In this document: positions 50,594 to 59,232 of the stretch, piece after piece
How positions within the stretch are numbered: the stretch's first letter is position 1
Layout of the letters: every line of letters starts with the position of its first letter
From: Escherichia coli
GTDB taxonomy: Bacteria > Pseudomonadota > Gammaproteobacteria > Enterobacterales > Enterobacteriaceae
Direction: 5' to 3' (one strand)
Assembly (NCBI RefSeq): GCF_051903065.1
Contig: NZ_CP178438.1
Length of the DNA: 64,000 nt
Program-made: the position numbers and the translations under genes
The notes under the pieces: generated by a model
The model's input: only the letters and a program-made list of their open reading frames with translations
Database searches by the model: none
What the model was told of the DNA's origin: nothing

Positions 50594-51625
<1,032 letters not shown>

Positions 51626-51665
51626 CCGCTGATTTACCCGGCGCAGCCTCTCCTGCGCCGGTGTA

Positions 51666-52619
51666 TTAACCTATCTCCTGTAACGCATGTCTCTGGCGTT
51701 CGACGATATTGGTCCACAAATTGTCTTTATCGTCAGTCCACAAATTAATCAGCAAGGCAAAAAAGCGTTCAGCTGCCGGAGAAAGCACGGCATCTTTGCG
51801 GCGAATAATCCCCAATGTCCGACGTATAACGGGTTCCACCAGTGGGATACCAATAATCGAAGAATAGGGCGCATGGGGCATTGCCAGACCAGGAAGCGCT
51901 GAAATCCCCAGTCCTGCCTCCACCAGTCCTAATGACGTCGAAAGATGACGCACTTCGTAAAACCAGTCCAGCTTCCAGGGCTTGTCGGCTAGCTGTTGTT
52001 CTATCAACAGTCGGTTGCCGCTGGAGGAGCGTACGCCAATCATTTTGTAACCCACTAACTCCTGCCATTCTACAAGCTGCTTTTTGGCCAATGGATGGTC
52101 ACGCCGACAGGCCAGCACGAACGGCTCGTTGACCAGTGGGCTAAAATCAATGGATGAATTTGTGACGTTGTTCATGTTTATGCCAAAGTCTGATTCGTTA
52201 CATAGCACCGATTCCATGCAATTATTCGTGCCTTGTTCCAGAATCCGCACTTTAATATTGGGATACAGCTCATTAAATTTACCGATTGCCAGCGGTAAAA
52301 AATAAAATACTGCGGTCGGAATACACGCTAACGTCACCATACCACGATGATAAGCATTCATATCACGAATATTAAAAAGCGTTTCATCGAATTTCTTTAT
52401 TAATTCCCGCGCCTCCGGGAGCAACCTTTTTCCTGCTTTTGTTAACGTAACCTTGCGAGTTGTACGCTCAAATAGTTGAATATGTAAATCTTCCTCCATC
52501 TTTTTTATTCTTCGCGTTAATGCAGGTTGCGTAATGTTGAGTAATTTAGCGGCATTGTTAAATGAACTGGACTCTGCCAGTATGACAAATGCCTTCATAC
52601 TTGATAATTCATGCTTCAT
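51666..52619 (-). CDS. ybhD: LysR-family transcriptional regulator, divergent from ybhHIJ
   Basis: Start placed at MKHELSSMKAFVILAESSSF; N-terminal HTH. Confidence 0.85.
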   Translation of the reverse strand: MKHELSSMKAFVILAESSSFNNAAKLLNITQPALTRRIKKMEEDLHIQLFERTTRKVTLTKAGKRLLPEARELIKKFDETLFNIRDMNAYHRGMVTLACIPTAVFYFLPLAIGKFNELYPNIKVRILEQGTNNCMESVLCNESDFGINMNNVTNSSIDFSPLVNEPFVLACRRDHPLAKKQLVEWQELVGYKMIGVRSSSGNRLLIEQQLADKPWKLDWFYEVRHLSTSLGLVEAGLGISALPGLAMPHAPYSSIIGIPLVEPVIRRTLGIIRRKDAVLSPAAERFFALLINLWTDDKDNLWTNIVERQRHALQEIG

Positions 52620-52802
52620 TATTACTCCGGAAAATGGAAGCGTTGATTTTGGGTGGCTGGCCGTTAAAAATTTTAACTGCATTTAGCCAACTTAAATTAA
52701 TGAAAAAATGTTATTAATCGTTGAGCTAAAGTCATTAGAGATGCTTTGCCCTTAATGTAACCATATCGCAATAAGTTATGTTTTTAAATTGAGGGCATTA
52801 TT

Positions 52803-53855
52803 ATGAAAAAAATACCCTGCGTGATGATGCGAGGTGGAACCTCGAGGGGCGCGTTCCTGTTAGCGGAACATTTACCCGAAGATCAAACGCAGCGCGATAA
52901 AATATTGATGGCAATTATGGGTTCCGGTAACGATCTGGAAATTGACGGTATTGGCGGCGGTAATCCGCTGACCAGTAAAGTCGCCATTATTAGCCGTTCC
53001 AGCGATCCGCGTGCTGATGTCGATTATCTGTTTGCTCAAGTTATCGTCCATGAGCAACGTGTCGATACCACGCCTAACTGCGGCAATATGCTGTCTGGCG
53101 TTGGGGCATTCGCCATTGAAAATGGTTTGATTGCAGCGACTTCGCCAGTTACCCGCGTACGTATCCGCAACGTCAATACGGGTACGTTTATCGAAGCTGA
53201 TGTGCAAACACCAAATGGTGTTGTCGAGTACGAGGGTAGCGCCAGAATTGACGGCGTACCGGGTACTGCCGCACCGGTTGCGCTCACTTTCCTGAATGCC
53301 GCTGGAACGAAAACCGGAAAAGTTTTCCCGACTGATAATCAGATTGATTATTTTGACGATGTCCCGGTGACCTGTATCGATATGGCGATGCCAGTCGTCA
53401 TTATTCCGGCTGAATATCTGGGAAAAACAGGCTATGAATTACCGGCGGAACTGGATGCCGACAAAGCATTATTAGCCCGCATTGAATCTATCCGTCTACA
53501 AGCGGGTAAAGCAATGGGCTTAGGTGATGTCAGTAATATGGTTATCCCTAAACCTGTGCTTATTTCTCCAGCGCAGAAAGGCGGGGCAATTAATGTGCGT
53601 TATTTTATGCCGCATTCTTGCCATCGCGCGTTGGCGATAACCGGTGCTATTGCTATTTCCAGTAGTTGTGCATTGGAAGGCACCGTCACCCGACAAATCA
53701 TCCCTTCTGTAGGATATGGCAATATCAATATTGAACACCCCAGTGGTGCGCTCGACGTTCATTTAAGTAATGAAGGTCAGGATGCCACGACGTTACGCTC
53801 ATCTGTTATTCGGACGACCAGAAAAATATTTTCCGGTGAAGTTTATCTTCCCTGA
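52803..53855 (+). CDS. ybhH: PrpF/AcnD-accessory-family putative isomerase
   Basis: 350-aa ORF starting MKKIPCVMMRGGTSRG, characteristic of the PrpF-like fold. Confidence 0.85.
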   Translation: MKKIPCVMMRGGTSRGAFLLAEHLPEDQTQRDKILMAIMGSGNDLEIDGIGGGNPLTSKVAIISRSSDPRADVDYLFAQVIVHEQRVDTTPNCGNMLSGVGAFAIENGLIAATSPVTRVRIRNVNTGTFIEADVQTPNGVVEYEGSARIDGVPGTAAPVALTFLNAAGTKTGKVFPTDNQIDYFDDVPVTCIDMAMPVVIIPAEYLGKTGYELPAELDADKALLARIESIRLQAGKAMGLGDVSNMVIPKPVLISPAQKGGAINVRYFMPHSCHRALAITGAIAISSSCALEGTVTRQIIPSVGYGNINIEHPSGALDVHLSNEGQDATTLRSSVIRTTRKIFSGEVYLP

Positions 53856-53930
53856 AAAGATTCGTTGTCAGGATAAGGACAATCAATAAAGGACTTCTGT
53901 ATGAGTCATACAGAAAGAACAGGATTTTAA

Positions 53931-55364
53931 ATGAATAAGAAATCGTTATGGAAGCTAATTCTGATATTAGCGATCCCATGTATTATTGGCTTTATGCCAG
54001 CTCCGGCAGGATTAAGCGAACTGGCGTGGGTGCTTTTTGGTATTTACCTGGCGGCCATTGTGGGGCTGGTTATCAAGCCTTTCCCGGAACCTGTCGTACT
54101 GTTAATTGCCGTTGCTGCCTCCATGGTGGTGGTCGGTAACTTATCCGACGGTGCGTTTAAAACCACCGCCGTATTAAGCGGTTACTCTTCAGGTACTACC
54201 TGGCTGGTGTTCTCGGCGTTTACCTTAAGCGCCGCATTTGTGACCACCGGTTTAGGTAAACGTATTGCCTATCTGCTGATTGGTAAAATCGGTAACACCA
54301 CGCTGGGTCTGGGTTACGTTACGGTATTCCTCGATCTGGTACTGGCTCCGGCAACACCGTCTAACACCGCGCGTGCGGGCGGCATTGTGTTACCGATCAT
54401 CAACAGCGTGGCGGTGGCTTTGGGGTCCGAACCGGAAAAAAGTCCGCGTCGTGTCGGACATTACCTGATGATGTCCATTTACATGGTCACCAAAACCACC
54501 AGCTATATGTTCTTTACCGCAATGGCGGGGAACATTCTGGCGCTGAAAATGATCAACGACATTCTGCACCTGCAAATTAGCTGGGGTGGATGGGCGCTGG
54601 CCGCCGGATTGCCGGGCATCATTATGCTGCTGGTCACCCCGCTGGTGATTTACACCATGTATCCACCAGAAATTAAGAAGGTGGATAACAAAACCATCGC
54701 TAAAGCGGGCCTTGCCGAACTGGGACCGATGAAAATCCGCGAAAAAATGCTGCTCGGTGTCTTTGTGCTGGCGCTGCTGGGCTGGATTTTCAGTAAGTCT
54801 CTGGGGGTTGATGAATCCACCGTGGCAATCGTTGTTATGGCGACCATGCTGCTGCTGGGTATCGTTACCTGGGAAGACGTGGTTAAAAATAAAGGCGGCT
54901 GGAATACCTTAATCTGGTACGGCGGTATTATCGGCTTAAGCTCCTTATTATCGAAAGTTAAATTTTTCGAATGGTTAGCTGAAGTCTTTAAAAATAACCT
55001 GGCATTTGATGGTCACGGTAACGTTGCTTTCTTCGTTATTATTTTCCTCAGCATCATCGTGCGTTATTTCTTCGCTTCCGGTAGTGCCTATATCGTTGCT
55101 ATGTTACCGGTATTTGCCATGCTGGCGAACGTCTCCGGCGCACCGTTAATGTTAACCGCGCTGGCACTGTTGTTCTCCAACTCCTATGGCGGCATGGTTA
55201 CTCACTATGGCGGCGCGGCAGGTCCGGTCATCTTTGGCGTGGGTTACAACGATATTAAATCCTGGTGGTTGGTCGGTGCGGTACTGACGATATTAACCTT
55301 CCTGGTGCATATCACCCTCGGCGTGTGGTGGTGGAATATGCTGATCGGCTGGAACATGCTGTAA
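53931..55364 (+). CDS. ybhI: Putative di/tricarboxylate transporter (DASS/SLC13-like)
   Basis: 477-aa polytopic membrane ORF. Confidence 0.85.
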   Translation: MNKKSLWKLILILAIPCIIGFMPAPAGLSELAWVLFGIYLAAIVGLVIKPFPEPVVLLIAVAASMVVVGNLSDGAFKTTAVLSGYSSGTTWLVFSAFTLSAAFVTTGLGKRIAYLLIGKIGNTTLGLGYVTVFLDLVLAPATPSNTARAGGIVLPIINSVAVALGSEPEKSPRRVGHYLMMSIYMVTKTTSYMFFTAMAGNILALKMINDILHLQISWGGWALAAGLPGIIMLLVTPLVIYTMYPPEIKKVDNKTIAKAGLAELGPMKIREKMLLGVFVLALLGWIFSKSLGVDESTVAIVVMATMLLLGIVTWEDVVKNKGGWNTLIWYGGIIGLSSLLSKVKFFEWLAEVFKNNLAFDGHGNVAFFVIIFLSIIVRYFFASGSAYIVAMLPVFAMLANVSGAPLMLTALALLFSNSYGGMVTHYGGAAGPVIFGVGYNDIKSWWLVGAVLTILTFLVHITLGVWWWNMLIGWNML

Positions 55365-55546
55365 ATATACTCGTCATACTTCAAGTTGCATGTGCTGCGT
55401 CTGCGTTCGCTCACCCCAGTCACTTACTTATGTAAGCTCCTGGGGATTCACTCGCTTGTCGCCTTCCTGCTACTCGAATTATTTAGAGTATATCCATTTA
55501 TTATCTTTCTGCGCACTTCACGGTGCGCAGATATCTGGAGCATTTG

Positions 55547-57808
55547 ATGATCAAGTTATCTGAAAAAGGCGTGTTTCTCGCCAGTAATAACGAAATAATT
55601 GCCGAAGAACATTTCACCGGCGAAATTAAAAAAGAAGAAGCCAAAAAAGGCACTATTGCCTGGTCTATTCTCTCTTCTCATAATACGTCCGGAAATATGG
55701 ATAAACTTAAAATTAAGTTTGATTCATTAGCCTCTCACGATATTACCTTTGTTGGTATTGTACAGACCGCTAAAGCGTCCGGTATGGAACGTTTCCCGCT
55801 GCCGTATGTGCTGACCAACTGCCATAACTCACTTTGCGCCGTCGGCGGCACCATTAACGGTGATGACCATGTTTTTGGTTTATCGGCGGCTCAGCGTTAT
55901 GGCGGTATTTTTGTGCCTCCGCATATTGCGGTCATCCATCAATATATGCGTGAGATGATGGCAGGTGGCGGCAAAATGATCCTCGGGTCAGACAGCCACA
56001 CCCGCTACGGTGCATTAGGGACAATGGCAGTCGGTGAGGGCGGCGGTGAGTTGGTAAAACAGCTGCTTAATGACACCTGGGATATCGACTATCCGGGAGT
56101 TGTTGCGGTGCATCTGACCGGAAAACCAGCGCCGTATGTTGGGCCGCAGGATGTGGCGCTGGCTATCATCGGTGCCGTGTTCAAAAACGGCTACGTCAAA
56201 AACAAAGTGATGGAATTCGTAGGTCCCGGTGTTGCTGCGCTCTCTACCGATTTCCGTAACAGCGTTGACGTTATGACCACTGAAACGACCTGTTTAAGTT
56301 CTGTCTGGCAAACCGATGAAGAAGTCCATAACTGGCTGGCGCTGCACGGTCGCGGCCAGGATTACTGCCAGCTTAACCCTCAACCGATGGCGTACTACGA
56401 TGGCTGCATCAGCGTTGATTTAAGCGCCATCAAACCAATGATTGCGCTGCCGTTCCACCCGAGCAACGTGTATGAAATCGACACACTGAACCAGAACCTG
56501 ACCGACATTCTGCGTGAGATTGAAATTGAGTCCGAACGCGTGGCGCACGGTAAAGCCAAACTCTCGCTGCTGGATAAAGTGGAAAATGGTCGCCTGAAAG
56601 TGCAGCAGGGGATTATCGCGGGCTGTTCTGGCGGTAACTACGAAAACGTCATCGCGGCGGCGAATGCACTGCGCGGTCAATCTTGTGGCAATGACACCTT
56701 CTCGTTGGCGGTTTACCCGTCATCACAGCCGGTGTTTATGGACTTAGCCAAAAAAGGTGTGGTAGCAGATTTGATTGGCGCAGGCGCAATTATCAGAACC
56801 GCGTTCTGCGGCCCATGCTTTGGCGCGGGCGATACGCCAATCAACAACGGTTTAAGTATTCGCCACACCACGCGTAACTTCCCGAACCGCGAAGGCTCTA
56901 AGCCAGCTAATGGGCAGATGTCAGCGGTGGCGTTGATGGACGCTCGTTCTATCGCTGCGACTGCGGCAAACGGTGGCTATTTAACCTCTGCCAGCGAACT
57001 TGATTGCTGGGACAACGTGCCGGAGTACGCCTTCGATGTAACGCCGTATAAAAATCGCGTCTATCAAGGATTTGTGAAAGGGGCGACCCAGCAACCGCTG
57101 ATTTACGGACCGAACATTAAAGACTGGCCGGAATTGGGTGCGCTGACTGACAATATCGTCCTCAAAGTGTGCTCGAAGATCCTCGACGAAGTGACCACCA
57201 CCGACGAACTGATCCCTTCCGGTGAAACCTCTTCTTATCGTTCAAATCCGATTGGTCTGGCGGAGTTTACCCTGTCTCGCCGCGATCCAGGTTATGTTGG
57301 CAGAAGTAAAGCGACTGCTGAGCTGGAAAATCAGCGTCTGGCGGGGAATGTCAGCGAGCTGACAGAGGTGTTTGCGCGCATTAAGCAGATTGCTGGTCAG
57401 GAGCATATTGATCCGCTGCAAACTGAAATTGGCAGCATGGTCTATGCGGTGAAACCAGGCGATGGTTCTGCGCGTGAACAGGCGGCGAGCTGCCAGCGTG
57501 TGATTGGCGGTCTGGCGAATATTGCCGAGGAGTACGCGACTAAACGCTACCGTTCTAACGTCATCAACTGGGGGATGTTACCGCTGCAGATGGCGGAAGT
57601 GCCAACCTTTGAAGTGGGGGATTACATTTACATCCCTGGCATTAAAGCGGCGCTGGATAATCCGGGTACGACGTTTAAAGGTTATGTGATCCATGAAGAT
57701 GCGCCGGTAACGGAAATTACGCTCTATATGGAAAGTCTGACTGCTGAAGAGCGCGAGATTATCAAGGCGGGTAGTTTGATTAACTTCAATAAAAACCGTC
57801 AGATGTAA
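55547..57808 (+). CDS. ybhJ: Aconitase-family protein (putative hydratase)
   Basis: Start placed at MIKLSEKG; large ORF with aconitase-like Cys-containing catalytic region and swivel domain. Confidence 0.85.
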
Positions 57809-57821
57809 AAAGCGCCATGTG

Positions 57822-57937
<116 letters not shown>

Positions 57938-57948
57938 GTTAATAGCTC

Positions 57949-59232
57949 TTACTTCTTCGCCTCTGCAACCACTTTGCTACCCACGCCGCGATTATTGTAT
58001 TCCCACATGCGGTTGTAGTTAGTGTCATTCAGATTGCGCTGTATTTCGTCGCTATCGTCAACGCTGCCGGTATTACCCGCAAATGGACGATTGGAAATCA
58101 CCGCATCGCCCCACGGTTTAACCGTGTTAAAACCTTCGTTGATGGCGCTATCACGGATCACCACCTGACCGTTGGTATTGGCATCAACATCCAGCGAGCG
58201 GCCCAGTTGTGCCACGCCATCACCGGAAGCATTGAAACGGCTGTTTACGGCGAGGAAACCGTAATAGATGTTGGACAGCGTAGCCGGTGCAAACACATAC
58301 GCTTCTTGCTGAGTACGTGAGTTCACCACGCGGAATTCGGTGTTATCGAACACCACTGCGCCGCGACCAGAAACGATATCCACATCCCCTTCAATATAGC
58401 TGTTGGTCACCAGCGTACGCGGCTGACGGTTGGTTTCCAGACGGTTCTGCACACCGCTGTTGGTGACAAAGAAGGTGTTCTGACGACCGAGAATGTTAAC
58501 GTTGTTAATCTGTACCTGGTCACCGTCAGTACGCAGTGCCACCGCCGGATGGTTACCTGCATCTACGCTATCGCCCAGCGTGTTTTCGATGGTCAGATTT
58601 TGCAGTTGCAGGCCATTGTTTTGTGACCAGAAGACCGCAGAACACAGAACACCGATACTGTCGCTGCGTTTGCTCTGGCAGCTATCGTACATATACCACG
58701 CTGGTTTACCTGGCATATATTTGCCGCGCGGGTTGACGTCGTGACGCCAGTCGGCAGGGCTCATGCCACCATCAAGGGAAAGCCCAATCTTCACATCAAT
58801 CGGTTTTTCACCTGTACCGTACAGAGTAATTCCACCCGGGGCGGCAGGGACATACACCGTTCCCTGATACTCACCAGGCATCACGGCAATATACTGGCGC
58901 TTGTTGGTACGCTTGATAATTGCCGCATCTACCGCCGCCTGAATCGTGGTATGCGTTACACCTTGAGTACCCGCCGGGCCGACAACAAAGTCAGGTTGTG
59001 TAGGCAGGGTAATCGGGGAAGGATTCCACGCTGCAGCACCTGGTGTCAGGGATGCAAAATAGTGTTGAGCATCGAAATTCTGCGCTTCTTTTGCCGACAG
59101 AATCGGGCGAGAAGAGGTACCAGGCGCAGTTTGATCAGAAGGACGTTGATCGGGTGGTGTTGAGCTACAGGCGGTCAGCGTCACGCCAAAAGCCAATGCC
59201 AGCGCCAGACGGGAAACTGAAAATGTGTTCAC
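57949..59232 (-). CDS. ybhC: Outer-membrane lipoprotein acyl-CoA thioesterase (pectinesterase-like fold)
   Basis: 427-aa ORF with lipoprotein signal (LTACSS). Confidence 0.9.
   Translation of the reverse strand: MNTFSVSRLALALAFGVTLTACSSTPPDQRPSDQTAPGTSSRPILSAKEAQNFDAQHYFASLTPGAAAWNPSPITLPTQPDFVVGPAGTQGVTHTTIQAAVDAAIIKRTNKRQYIAVMPGEYQGTVYVPAAPGGITLYGTGEKPIDVKIGLSLDGGMSPADWRHDVNPRGKYMPGKPAWYMYDSCQSKRSDSIGVLCSAVFWSQNNGLQLQNLTIENTLGDSVDAGNHPAVALRTDGDQVQINNVNILGRQNTFFVTNSGVQNRLETNRQPRTLVTNSYIEGDVDIVSGRGAVVFDNTEFRVVNSRTQQEAYVFAPATLSNIYYGFLAVNSRFNASGDGVAQLGRSLDVDANTNGQVVIRDSAINEGFNTVKPWGDAVISNRPFAGNTGSVDDSDEIQRNLNDTNYNRMWEYNNRGVGSKVVAEAKK

Follow-up and report, generated by a model that had tools for sequence, protein, structure and literature searches.

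In a window of 64,000 nucleotides of Escherichia coli DNA (the whole stretch analysed, from contig NZ_CP178438.1), the regulator gene ybhD lies divergent from the three co-oriented genes ybhH, ybhI and ybhJ. We propose, with a probability of about 0.5, that this cluster encodes the LysR-controlled uptake of an aconitate isomer, most likely plant-derived trans-aconitate, into citrate metabolism. The proposal builds on gene content, conservation of catalytic residues, comparative genomic contexts and the published de-repression of ybhH, from which we infer the substrates, the transport mode, the effector and the regulator binding site. In the proposed pathway YbhI would import the tricarboxylate, perhaps in exchange for succinate or malate, and YbhH would convert trans-aconitate into cis-aconitate by a 1,3-allylic proton shift via Lys59 and Cys93. 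YbhJ would then hydrate cis-aconitate to citrate and/or isocitrate, to be consumed by the cell's own citrate lyase (citCDEFXG) or by isocitrate dehydrogenase. YbhD, acting on an ATTAAT-N11-ATTAAT element, would keep the operon off until an effector, presumably an aconitate isomer or citrate, is present.

A first-pass annotation of the window had described a LysR regulator divergent from genes for a PrpF-like isomerase, a DASS-type anion transporter and an aconitase-family protein, and had read them as serving the catabolism or salvage of a tri- or dicarboxylic acid. The positions of its reading frames are borne out exactly by the list of open reading frames (ORFs) and the RefSeq annotation, the gene order is that of RefSeq, and Pfam and NCBIfam profile searches upheld all four family identities. 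The idea of a catabolic or salvage route is likewise supported and can be narrowed by the carboxylate-binding arginines kept in YbhJ and by comparative context. The main features are:

ybhD, 51666-52619, minus strand, 317 amino acids: LysR-type transcription regulator (RefSeq annotation and Pfam)
ybhD/ybhH divergent control region, 52620-52802: holds the candidate LysR-box dyad
ybhH, 52803-53855, plus strand, 350 amino acids: PrpF-family 1,3-allylic isomerase, proposed aconitate (trans/cis) isomerase
ybhI, 53931-55364, plus strand, 477 amino acids: DASS-family anion transporter, proposed tricarboxylate/dicarboxylate exchanger
ybhJ, 55547-57808, plus strand, 753 amino acids: aconitase-family [4Fe-4S] hydratase, proposed cis-aconitate hydratase/aconitase

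The active site of YbhJ

YbhJ is composed of an Aconitase (PF00330) and an Aconitase_C (PF00694) domain and has an NCBIfam equivalog of its own (NF008503), while scoring below the cut-off of every named aconitase equivalog. We aligned YbhJ and its family profile to mitochondrial aconitase and tabulated 19 positions across 81 family members from four phyla; 17 of them are invariant and the other two differ in one sequence each. The cluster ligands Cys360, Cys421 and Cys424 and the catalytic Ser641 correspond to mitochondrial Cys358, Cys421, Cys424 and Ser642 and are invariant in the 81 homologs. All four carboxylate-binding arginines are kept (Arg443, Arg448, Arg565 and Arg643, equivalent to mitochondrial Arg447, Arg452, Arg580 and Arg644), which points to a tricarboxylate substrate. 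Also retained are His93, His131, His151, Asp149, Asp553 and Glu246 (mitochondrial His101, His147, His167, Asp165, Asp568 and Glu262) as well as mitochondrial Ser166, with Asp553 and Arg565 being invariant in the same alignment. Six positions are replaced in YbhJ, namely, in mitochondrial numbering, Q72H, D100C, N170Y, N258V, N446T and S643A. Taken together, the residue pattern looks like that of a working Fe-S hydratase that binds a tricarboxylate and has a modified cluster shell. On the whole, we regard it as rather likely that YbhJ acts on the aconitate/citrate/isocitrate set.

As trans-aconitate inhibits aconitase (Saffran & Prado 1949, as quoted in a citing paper), a dedicated aconitase is perhaps needed for this pathway; that YbhJ tolerates such inhibition is a guess. 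Many separate E. coli YbhJ protein clusters have a length of 634 or 648 instead of 753 amino acids, some of them on dozens of contigs. They may reflect allele truncation, or a different choice of start, in a part of the population.

Relatives of YbhJ and their genomic contexts

Outside the Enterobacterales the nearest relatives of YbhJ, 60-72% identical, come from gut and rumen anaerobes (Lachnospiraceae/Enterocloster, Blautia, Collinsella, Megasphaera, Acidaminococcus, Oribacterium, Ellagibacter and Synergistales). We clustered the neighbours of these relatives and named them with Pfam and NCBIfam, counting over 56 loci (52 from anaerobes other than Collinsella, three enterobacterial and one from a metagenome). 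A gene for citrate synthase, an isocitrate-dehydrogenase-type enzyme or citrate lyase lies at most 5 kb from the ybhJ homolog in 19 of the 56 loci. Among these contexts are trios of YbhJ, citrate synthase and an isocitrate-dehydrogenase-type gene (for example L010, L011, L021, L023, L059, L063 and L065), a pairing with the NADP-dependent isocitrate dehydrogenase in Synergistales, and an association with the citrate lyase genes citDEF (L008, L044 and L054). This citrate linkage is seen in close homologs of YbhJ, not in E. coli itself; since the active-site residues of the homologs are the same as in the E. coli protein, the simplest reading is that the family consists of true aconitases. The Collinsella homolog is on its own, surrounded by dnaK, dnaJ, a MerR-family regulator gene that is hspR-like by position, and clpB, a housekeeping-like setting whose heat-shock neighbours yield no pathway information.

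In several loci a lysR gene, a PrpF-family gene and a carrier gene accompany the ybhJ homolog:

Acidaminococcus fermentans (L046): lysR / prpF-matC-ybhJ, flanked by the unrelated genes lgt and leuS
Oribacterium (L044): lysR / prpF-matC-ybhJ-citD-citE-citF
L072, L075 and L076: lysR / ybhJ-prpF-matC
Klebsiella aerogenes (L086): lysR / ybhH-ybhI-second carrier-ybhJ

After the K. aerogenes cluster come genes that by their Pfam families correspond to citA/citB, oadGAB and citS, a citrate-fermentation locus with gene names read from the families. Use of trans-aconitate is documented for several of the bacteria concerned or for their kin. K. pneumoniae uses it as sole carbon source (PMC2656620), although its Ozaenae and CC82 lineages no longer do, and Citrobacter, Enterobacter and Providencia isolates, all Enterobacterales, assimilate it by means of isomerase genes not yet identified (PMC13188880). 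A. fermentans is a documented trans-aconitate fermenter whose candidate genes include a MatC carrier and an adjacent 'aconitate hydratase domain protein' (PMC3035267); going by the gene list of that genome paper, cluster L046 would underlie the fermentation. The A. fermentans and Oribacterium clusters share with E. coli the same four functional parts, their YbhJ orthologs being 67% identical to the E. coli protein with identical active-site residues. They differ in the carrier, which belongs to the MatC/CitMHS family whereas YbhI is a DASS protein, and in the PrpF protein, which falls into another subclade and is 40% identical to YbhH.

On the metagenome contig L005 (L005:199-10202) a single LysR gene separates two operons. 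Jointly these encode three aconitase-family proteins (756, 650 and 733 amino acids), a divergent Iso_dh-family dehydrogenase and a PrpF protein, putatively a more elaborate tricarboxylate pathway.

YbhJ proteins of Enterobacterales, Bacillota, Actinomycetota (Collinsella, Ellagibacter) and Synergistota are 60-72% identical, an uncommonly high figure for different phyla that suggests horizontal spread among gut bacteria. A bolder version of our proposal, which we offer tentatively and as possible at best, is that YbhJ represents a distinct aconitase lineage horizontally shared among gut bacteria (Enterobacterales, Lachnospiraceae, Collinsella, Negativicutes and Synergistota) with a cluster environment (D100C, N258V, N446T) that is possibly trans-aconitate-resistant. 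Together with YbhH, YbhI and citrate lyase it might then serve the gut fermentation of dietary trans-aconitate by aconitate/succinate exchange.

The isomerase YbhH

YbhH matches the PrpF family PF04303 with an E-value of 2.2e-167 over its full length (residues 1-350), covering profile positions 1-371. A solved structure of YbhH itself, PDB 6OTV, is uncharacterised; the protein encoded in the window differs from this crystallised K-12 protein at two residues, 298 (Ile for Val) and 333 (Ser for Ala). Lys59 and Cys93 of YbhH align with Lys66 and Cys100 of LigU, the residues mutated in the structures 6P3H (K66M) and 6P3K (C100S), and the equivalent catalytic pair of PrpF is Lys73/Cys107. Isomerisation by LigU is a 1,3-allylic shift (Hogancamp & Raushel 2018, via a citing paper), and so is that by aconitate isomerase (Klinman & Rose 1971, via a citing paper). 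By our chemical reasoning 4-oxalomesaconate (OMA) would correspond to aconitate plus one keto carbon.

RefSeq calls YbhH a 4-oxalomesaconate tautomerase because the protein passes the NCBIfam model NF033377 of that name, scoring 514 bits against a cut-off of 440. The proven aconitate isomerase Bt TbrA reaches 413 bits on the same model, indicating that NF033377 does not separate OMA tautomerases from aconitate isomerases. In a neighbour-joining tree of 15 sequences (without bootstrap) the YbhH clade is sister to GalD and LigU and lies outside the clade formed by them. True GalD and LigU genes are embedded among genes for a dioxygenase, the hydratase GalB/LigJ and the aldolase GalC/LigK, all of which are absent near ybhH and its 57-80% identical relatives in the genomes compared (E. 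coli, Klebsiella, Pseudomonas, Dickeya and Rhizobium). Judged by these comparisons, the RefSeq name of YbhH is probably wrong. NF033377 gives the same name to the whole YbhH clade, including proteins of Pseudomonas, Dickeya, Rhizobium and Klebsiella that lack a gallate or protocatechuate context, likely a case of systematic over-annotation.

The relatives of YbhH in Pseudomonas and Dickeya (about 62-63% identical) and in Rhizobium and Providencia (about 57%) have only a LysR regulator and uptake proteins as neighbours, save for citCDEF in Dickeya. The Dickeya locus comprises a LysR gene, a YbhH-like gene and an MFS transporter and adjoins citCDEF; in Pseudomonas the LysR and YbhH-like genes are joined by two carriers and an OprD-family porin, and in Rhizobium by an ABC importer. 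An isomerase that is combined with uptake proteins and lacks downstream enzymes is consistent with a product, cis-aconitate, that already belongs to central metabolism. In the Bt locus the TbrA gene is accompanied by a DMT exporter.

The transporter YbhI

YbhI scores 554 bits on TIGR00785 (Na_sulph_symp/DASS; cut-off 199) and shares, over its full length, 33% identity with the citrate/succinate antiporter CitT, whose gene in the same genome adjoins citCDEFXG about 140 kb from the cluster. It is also 36% identical to the spinach 2-oxoglutarate/malate translocator. Its nearest solved structures are those of chloroplast DiT1 and DiT2 and PDB 6WTW (deposited as a DASS family sodium-coupled anion symporter), all three of which we take to be exchangers. 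If YbhI works as an exchanger, this would also account for the malate phenotype seen on de-repression, described below.

YbhD and the control region

YbhD has the Pfam domains HTH_1 (residues 6-64) and LysR_substrate (91-290). These two domains, together with the divergently transcribed target operon and the T-N11-A dyad in the region between them, are features of a LysR-type regulator. The dyad, an inverted repeat ATTAAT-N11-ATTAAT at 52696-52718 in the ybhD-ybhH spacer, was compared in E. albertii, Citrobacter and Klebsiella aerogenes: across four genera its left half ATTAAT is invariant and its right half is kept or partly kept. It is a candidate T-N11-A LysR box at which YbhD may bind.

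The first-pass annotation had held that neither substrate nor inducer is established. For the substrate this still stands, as a literature search for defined substrates of YbhH, YbhI and YbhJ found none, but regulation is partly known (Rodionova et al. 2022, PMC9068703). That study reports a ChIP-exo site for YbhD and a strong rise of ybhH expression in the ybhD deletion, so that YbhD behaves as a repressor, and it places ybhHI under the control of Nac. The deletion strain had a growth phenotype only when L-malate was added, and the system was labelled 'L-malate utilization related'. No expression values for ybhJ were found in the supplement of PMC9068703; in a co-culture of E. coli with Chlamydomonas, ybhJ was 18-fold up (PMC10972114).

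Locus, intergenic elements and neighbourhood

The four genes are real conserved genes and no chance ORFs. E. coli NZ_AP045789.1, where RefSeq annotates the four genes, matches the region 51000-58500 with 100% identity, and 5314 of 5426 complete E. coli genomes (98%) carry it at a coverage of at least 80%. The ybhD ORF reaches to 52682 (338 amino acids) and that of ybhJ starts from a GTG at 55523 (761 amino acids), the annotated genes encoding 317 and 753 amino acids, respectively. The G+C content of ybhD and ybhH is 45-48%, that of the window 50% and that of ybhJ an ordinary 51%; ybhD and ybhH are thus only mildly AT-rich, too little to argue for recent transfer. Three further elements lie between or behind the genes:

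stem-loop with a 10-bp stem in the 75-bp ybhH-ybhI spacer, 53894-53916, plus strand
ybhI-ybhJ spacer of 182 bp, 55365-55546: ERIC/IRU-type dispersed repeat
REP/BIME-type palindromic repeats, 57826-57935, directly after the ybhJ stop codon and before the convergent gene ybhC

The stem-loop, flagged as terminator-like on the minus strand, is possibly an mRNA processing or stability element and may affect the relative levels of ybhH and ybhI mRNA. The ybhI-ybhJ spacer contains the ERIC2 and ERIC1R primer motifs and has a median of 5 matching places per E. coli genome; we take it to be of the ERIC/IRU type. In Citrobacter the same spacer measures just 72 bp, so ybhJ is likely co-transcribed with ybhHI. 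The repeats behind ybhJ, which we take to be of the REP/BIME type, mark the end of the unit before ybhC. Because of these REP/BIME units and the ERIC copy, the region 51000-58500 as a whole has a median of 26 matching places per E. coli genome. An Rfam scan of 51000-58500 found no RNA family. A promoter and terminator scan was uninformative, with fewer promoter-like sites than in shuffled sequences and none in the ybhD-ybhH spacer.

The cluster is flanked by pgl on one side and by the convergent ybhC on the other. Directly upstream of ybhD, pgl (50630-51625) encodes a PF10282 seven-bladed lactonase. A PF10282 lactonase also lies beside the MatC carrier in the Firmicutes YbhJ cluster L054 (L054:329-1417), and its homolog by blastp clustering at L013:14534-15694, assigned to the family by homology only, likewise adjoins a MatC-type carrier. 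The pgl-ybhD adjacency is not conserved in Klebsiella and may be a coincidence or a hint of a tricarboxylate-lactone substrate in clusters of the L054/L013 type. Just past ybhC, at 59367-61281, are an N-terminally truncated tyrosine recombinase/integrase pseudogene and an IS481-family transposase. The lambda attachment site of K-12 presumably lies nearby, and the two genes may be the remnant of an integrated element.

Comparison with known systems

The closest likeness in overall design is to tarR/tarA-tarB of B. velezensis FZB42, which comprises a LysR regulator, a PrpF-superfamily aconitate isomerase and an importer (PMC11495376). In both loci the LysR gene is divergent from genes for a PrpF-superfamily isomerase and a membrane importer, an arrangement suited to importing the acid and isomerising it to an intermediate of the tricarboxylic acid cycle with no further steps. 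They differ in that the E. coli transporter belongs to the DASS and the tar importer to the MFS family, that the E. coli module adds a dedicated aconitase-family enzyme, and that TarR is an activator whereas YbhD behaves as a repressor. Moreover, YbhH is just 41% identical to the related enzyme TbrA, and the E. coli activities are predicted.

The first-pass annotation had also drawn on the PrpF/AcnD pair, which acts in the 2-methylcitrate cycle of Shewanella and Ralstonia (PMC5690661). As an analogy this holds, since both systems combine an aconitase-family dehydratase with a PrpF-family cis/trans isomerase for an aconitate-type tricarboxylate, but membership does not: the ybh cluster has no prpB or prpC neighbours, and both proteins score far below the equivalog cut-offs. 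YbhH reaches 186 bits on the model of PrpF sensu stricto (TIGR02334; cut-off 440.55), with no acnD or prpBC nearby, and YbhJ 63 bits on the AcnD model (TIGR02333; cut-off 1419.85). For propionate, E. coli uses PrpD. GalD and LigU (PDB 6P3H/J/K) share with YbhH the fold, the Lys/Cys catalytic pair and, where validated by context, 46-49% of their residues, but their gene context is wholly different and YbhH lies in a separate clade. The ybh module is thus outside the AcnD, PrpF sensu stricto and GalD/LigU equivalogs.

Within E. coli, citCDEFXG-citT and ttdR/ttdAB-ttdT also couple DASS-family exchangers to a lyase or an Fe-S hydratase, although their substrates and enzymes differ from those of the ybh module and antiport by YbhI is predicted. 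The ttd system has a divergent LysR regulator as well (cf. Kim et al. 2009, via a citing paper).

Evidence against the proposal and alternative readings

We know of no aerobic growth of E. coli on trans-aconitate. Several further points weigh against trans-aconitate uptake. The literature searched yielded neither enzymatic nor transport nor inducer data on any of the four proteins, trans-aconitate builds up in E. coli engineered to produce it (PMC12492653), and the sole reported phenotype of the system concerns malate (PMC9068703). YbhH is nearer in sequence to the OMA isomerases (46-49% identity) than to TbrA (41%), and in YbhJ six residues of the aconitase active site and cluster shell are replaced. 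Most YbhJ homologs of anaerobes have no PrpF neighbour; L013 and L005 carry a second, conventional aconitase beside YbhJ, which hints at a distinct role of the latter, and some clusters add a divergent Iso_dh protein, a PF10282 lactonase, an Fe-ADH or an RraA-like aldolase. Finally, PMC4054840, with reference to Blank, Green & Guest 2002, describes YbhJ as an aconitase paralog without catalytic activity.

Part of this evidence would suit a different unsaturated or hydroxylated acid, such as 2-methylaconitate, homoaconitate, itaconate/citraconate (cf. Mii/DmdAB of nicotinate fermentation), hydroxycitrate or a tricarboxylate lactone, from which YbhH would form a cis-ene and YbhJ a substituted malate. 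PrpF-family and aconitase-family enzymes act consecutively elsewhere, as in acnD-prpF of Ralstonia, the isomerase Mii (PDB 3G7K) matches YbhH at 2.6e-67, and one UniRef name of an Edwardsiella YbhJ is '2,3-dimethylmalate dehydratase'. The six changed residues, the additional enzymes of some clusters and the standard aconitase kept beside YbhJ in some genomes point in the same direction. However, the four arginines for three carboxylates speak against dicarboxylates such as citraconate or dimethylmaleate, homologs with identical active-site residues occur in trios with citrate synthase and isocitrate dehydrogenase and beside citrate lyase, and the low PrpF (186 versus 440) and AcnD (63 versus 1420) scores argue against substrates of the methylcitrate type. 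We consider a different acid unlikely.

Following Rodionova et al., the cluster could be mainly a C4-dicarboxylate system, in which YbhI moves L-malate and YbhH and YbhJ act on a malate-related acid. This agrees with the phenotype of the ybhD deletion, seen only with added L-malate (PMC9068703), with the similarity of YbhI to the spinach translocator and with the dicarboxylate transporters DiT1 and DiT2 being among its nearest structures. It is hard to see, though, what a PrpF isomerase and an aconitase-type enzyme would do with malate; E. coli already possesses fumarases and the Dcu/DctA carriers, and the homolog contexts concern citrate, not malate. The phenotype fits malate equally well as the counter-substrate of a de-repressed exchanger. 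We hold a malate system to be distinctly improbable.

A ybhJ knockout is said to have left the residual aconitase activity of an acnAB mutant unchanged. It is conceivable that YbhJ is a non-catalytic or regulatory aconitase paralog, for instance a redox or iron sensor, and that the cluster is cryptic or decaying in E. coli. The inactivity stated in PMC4054840 would fit such a role, as would the finding in the same paper that a ybhJ deletion is H2O2-sensitive and low in NADPH; further points in its favour are the changes in several second-shell cluster residues, the many truncated 634-amino-acid variants that circulate in E. coli and the ERIC repeat between ybhI and ybhJ. Yet the tested catalytic and ligand residues are invariant or nearly so in 81 sequences from four phyla, as is usual for an enzyme maintained by selection; 98% of complete E. 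coli genomes have the cluster intact, and ybhJ responds strongly to algal co-culture (PMC10972114). The claim of inactivity, in turn, rests on the knockout test of Blank, Green & Guest 2002, presumably done while ybhJ was under repression by YbhD. A non-catalytic YbhJ thus appears very improbable.

Slightly less room still is left for the RefSeq name being right, with YbhH isomerising OMA among the ring-cleavage products of gallate or protocatechuate and YbhJ replacing the usual hydratase. The score of YbhH on NF033377 and its identity to LigU and GalD would suit this function, KCH would correspond to cis-aconitate plus one keto carbon so that an aconitase-type hydration is chemically conceivable, and RraA-like aldolases lie beside some YbhJ homologs. 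On the other side stand the lack of dioxygenase, GalB/LigJ and GalC/LigK genes around ybhH in all five genera compared, the sister-clade position of YbhH and the poor specificity of NF033377 revealed by TbrA; on gene context and tree we rejected this reading. Equivalog scores and gene context likewise led us to reject methylcitrate as the substrate of a PrpF/AcnD-type pair.

Significance

The genes and the regulatory link between YbhD and ybhH were already known. What is new is that we predict a substrate, find YbhH to be likely mis-annotated and recognise in the YbhJ family an aconitase of the anaerobe type. The name '4-oxalomesaconate tautomerase' has been propagated to thousands of genomes and would be corrected if our proposal is true. 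The YbhH clade is an obvious candidate for the trans-aconitate isomerase genes of Enterobacterales, and the YbhJ family, for which we found no biochemical characterisation in any organism, would be a dedicated aconitase of the anaerobe type.

Grasses, cereals and sugar crops are rich in trans-aconitate, which microbes of the rumen and gut process. If the proposed uptake and isomerisation of aconitate is true, it would give a concrete role to four of the remaining E. coli genes of unknown function, and, if the tentative extension to gut fermentation is true as well, trans-aconitate would be a new anaerobic carbon source for E. coli.

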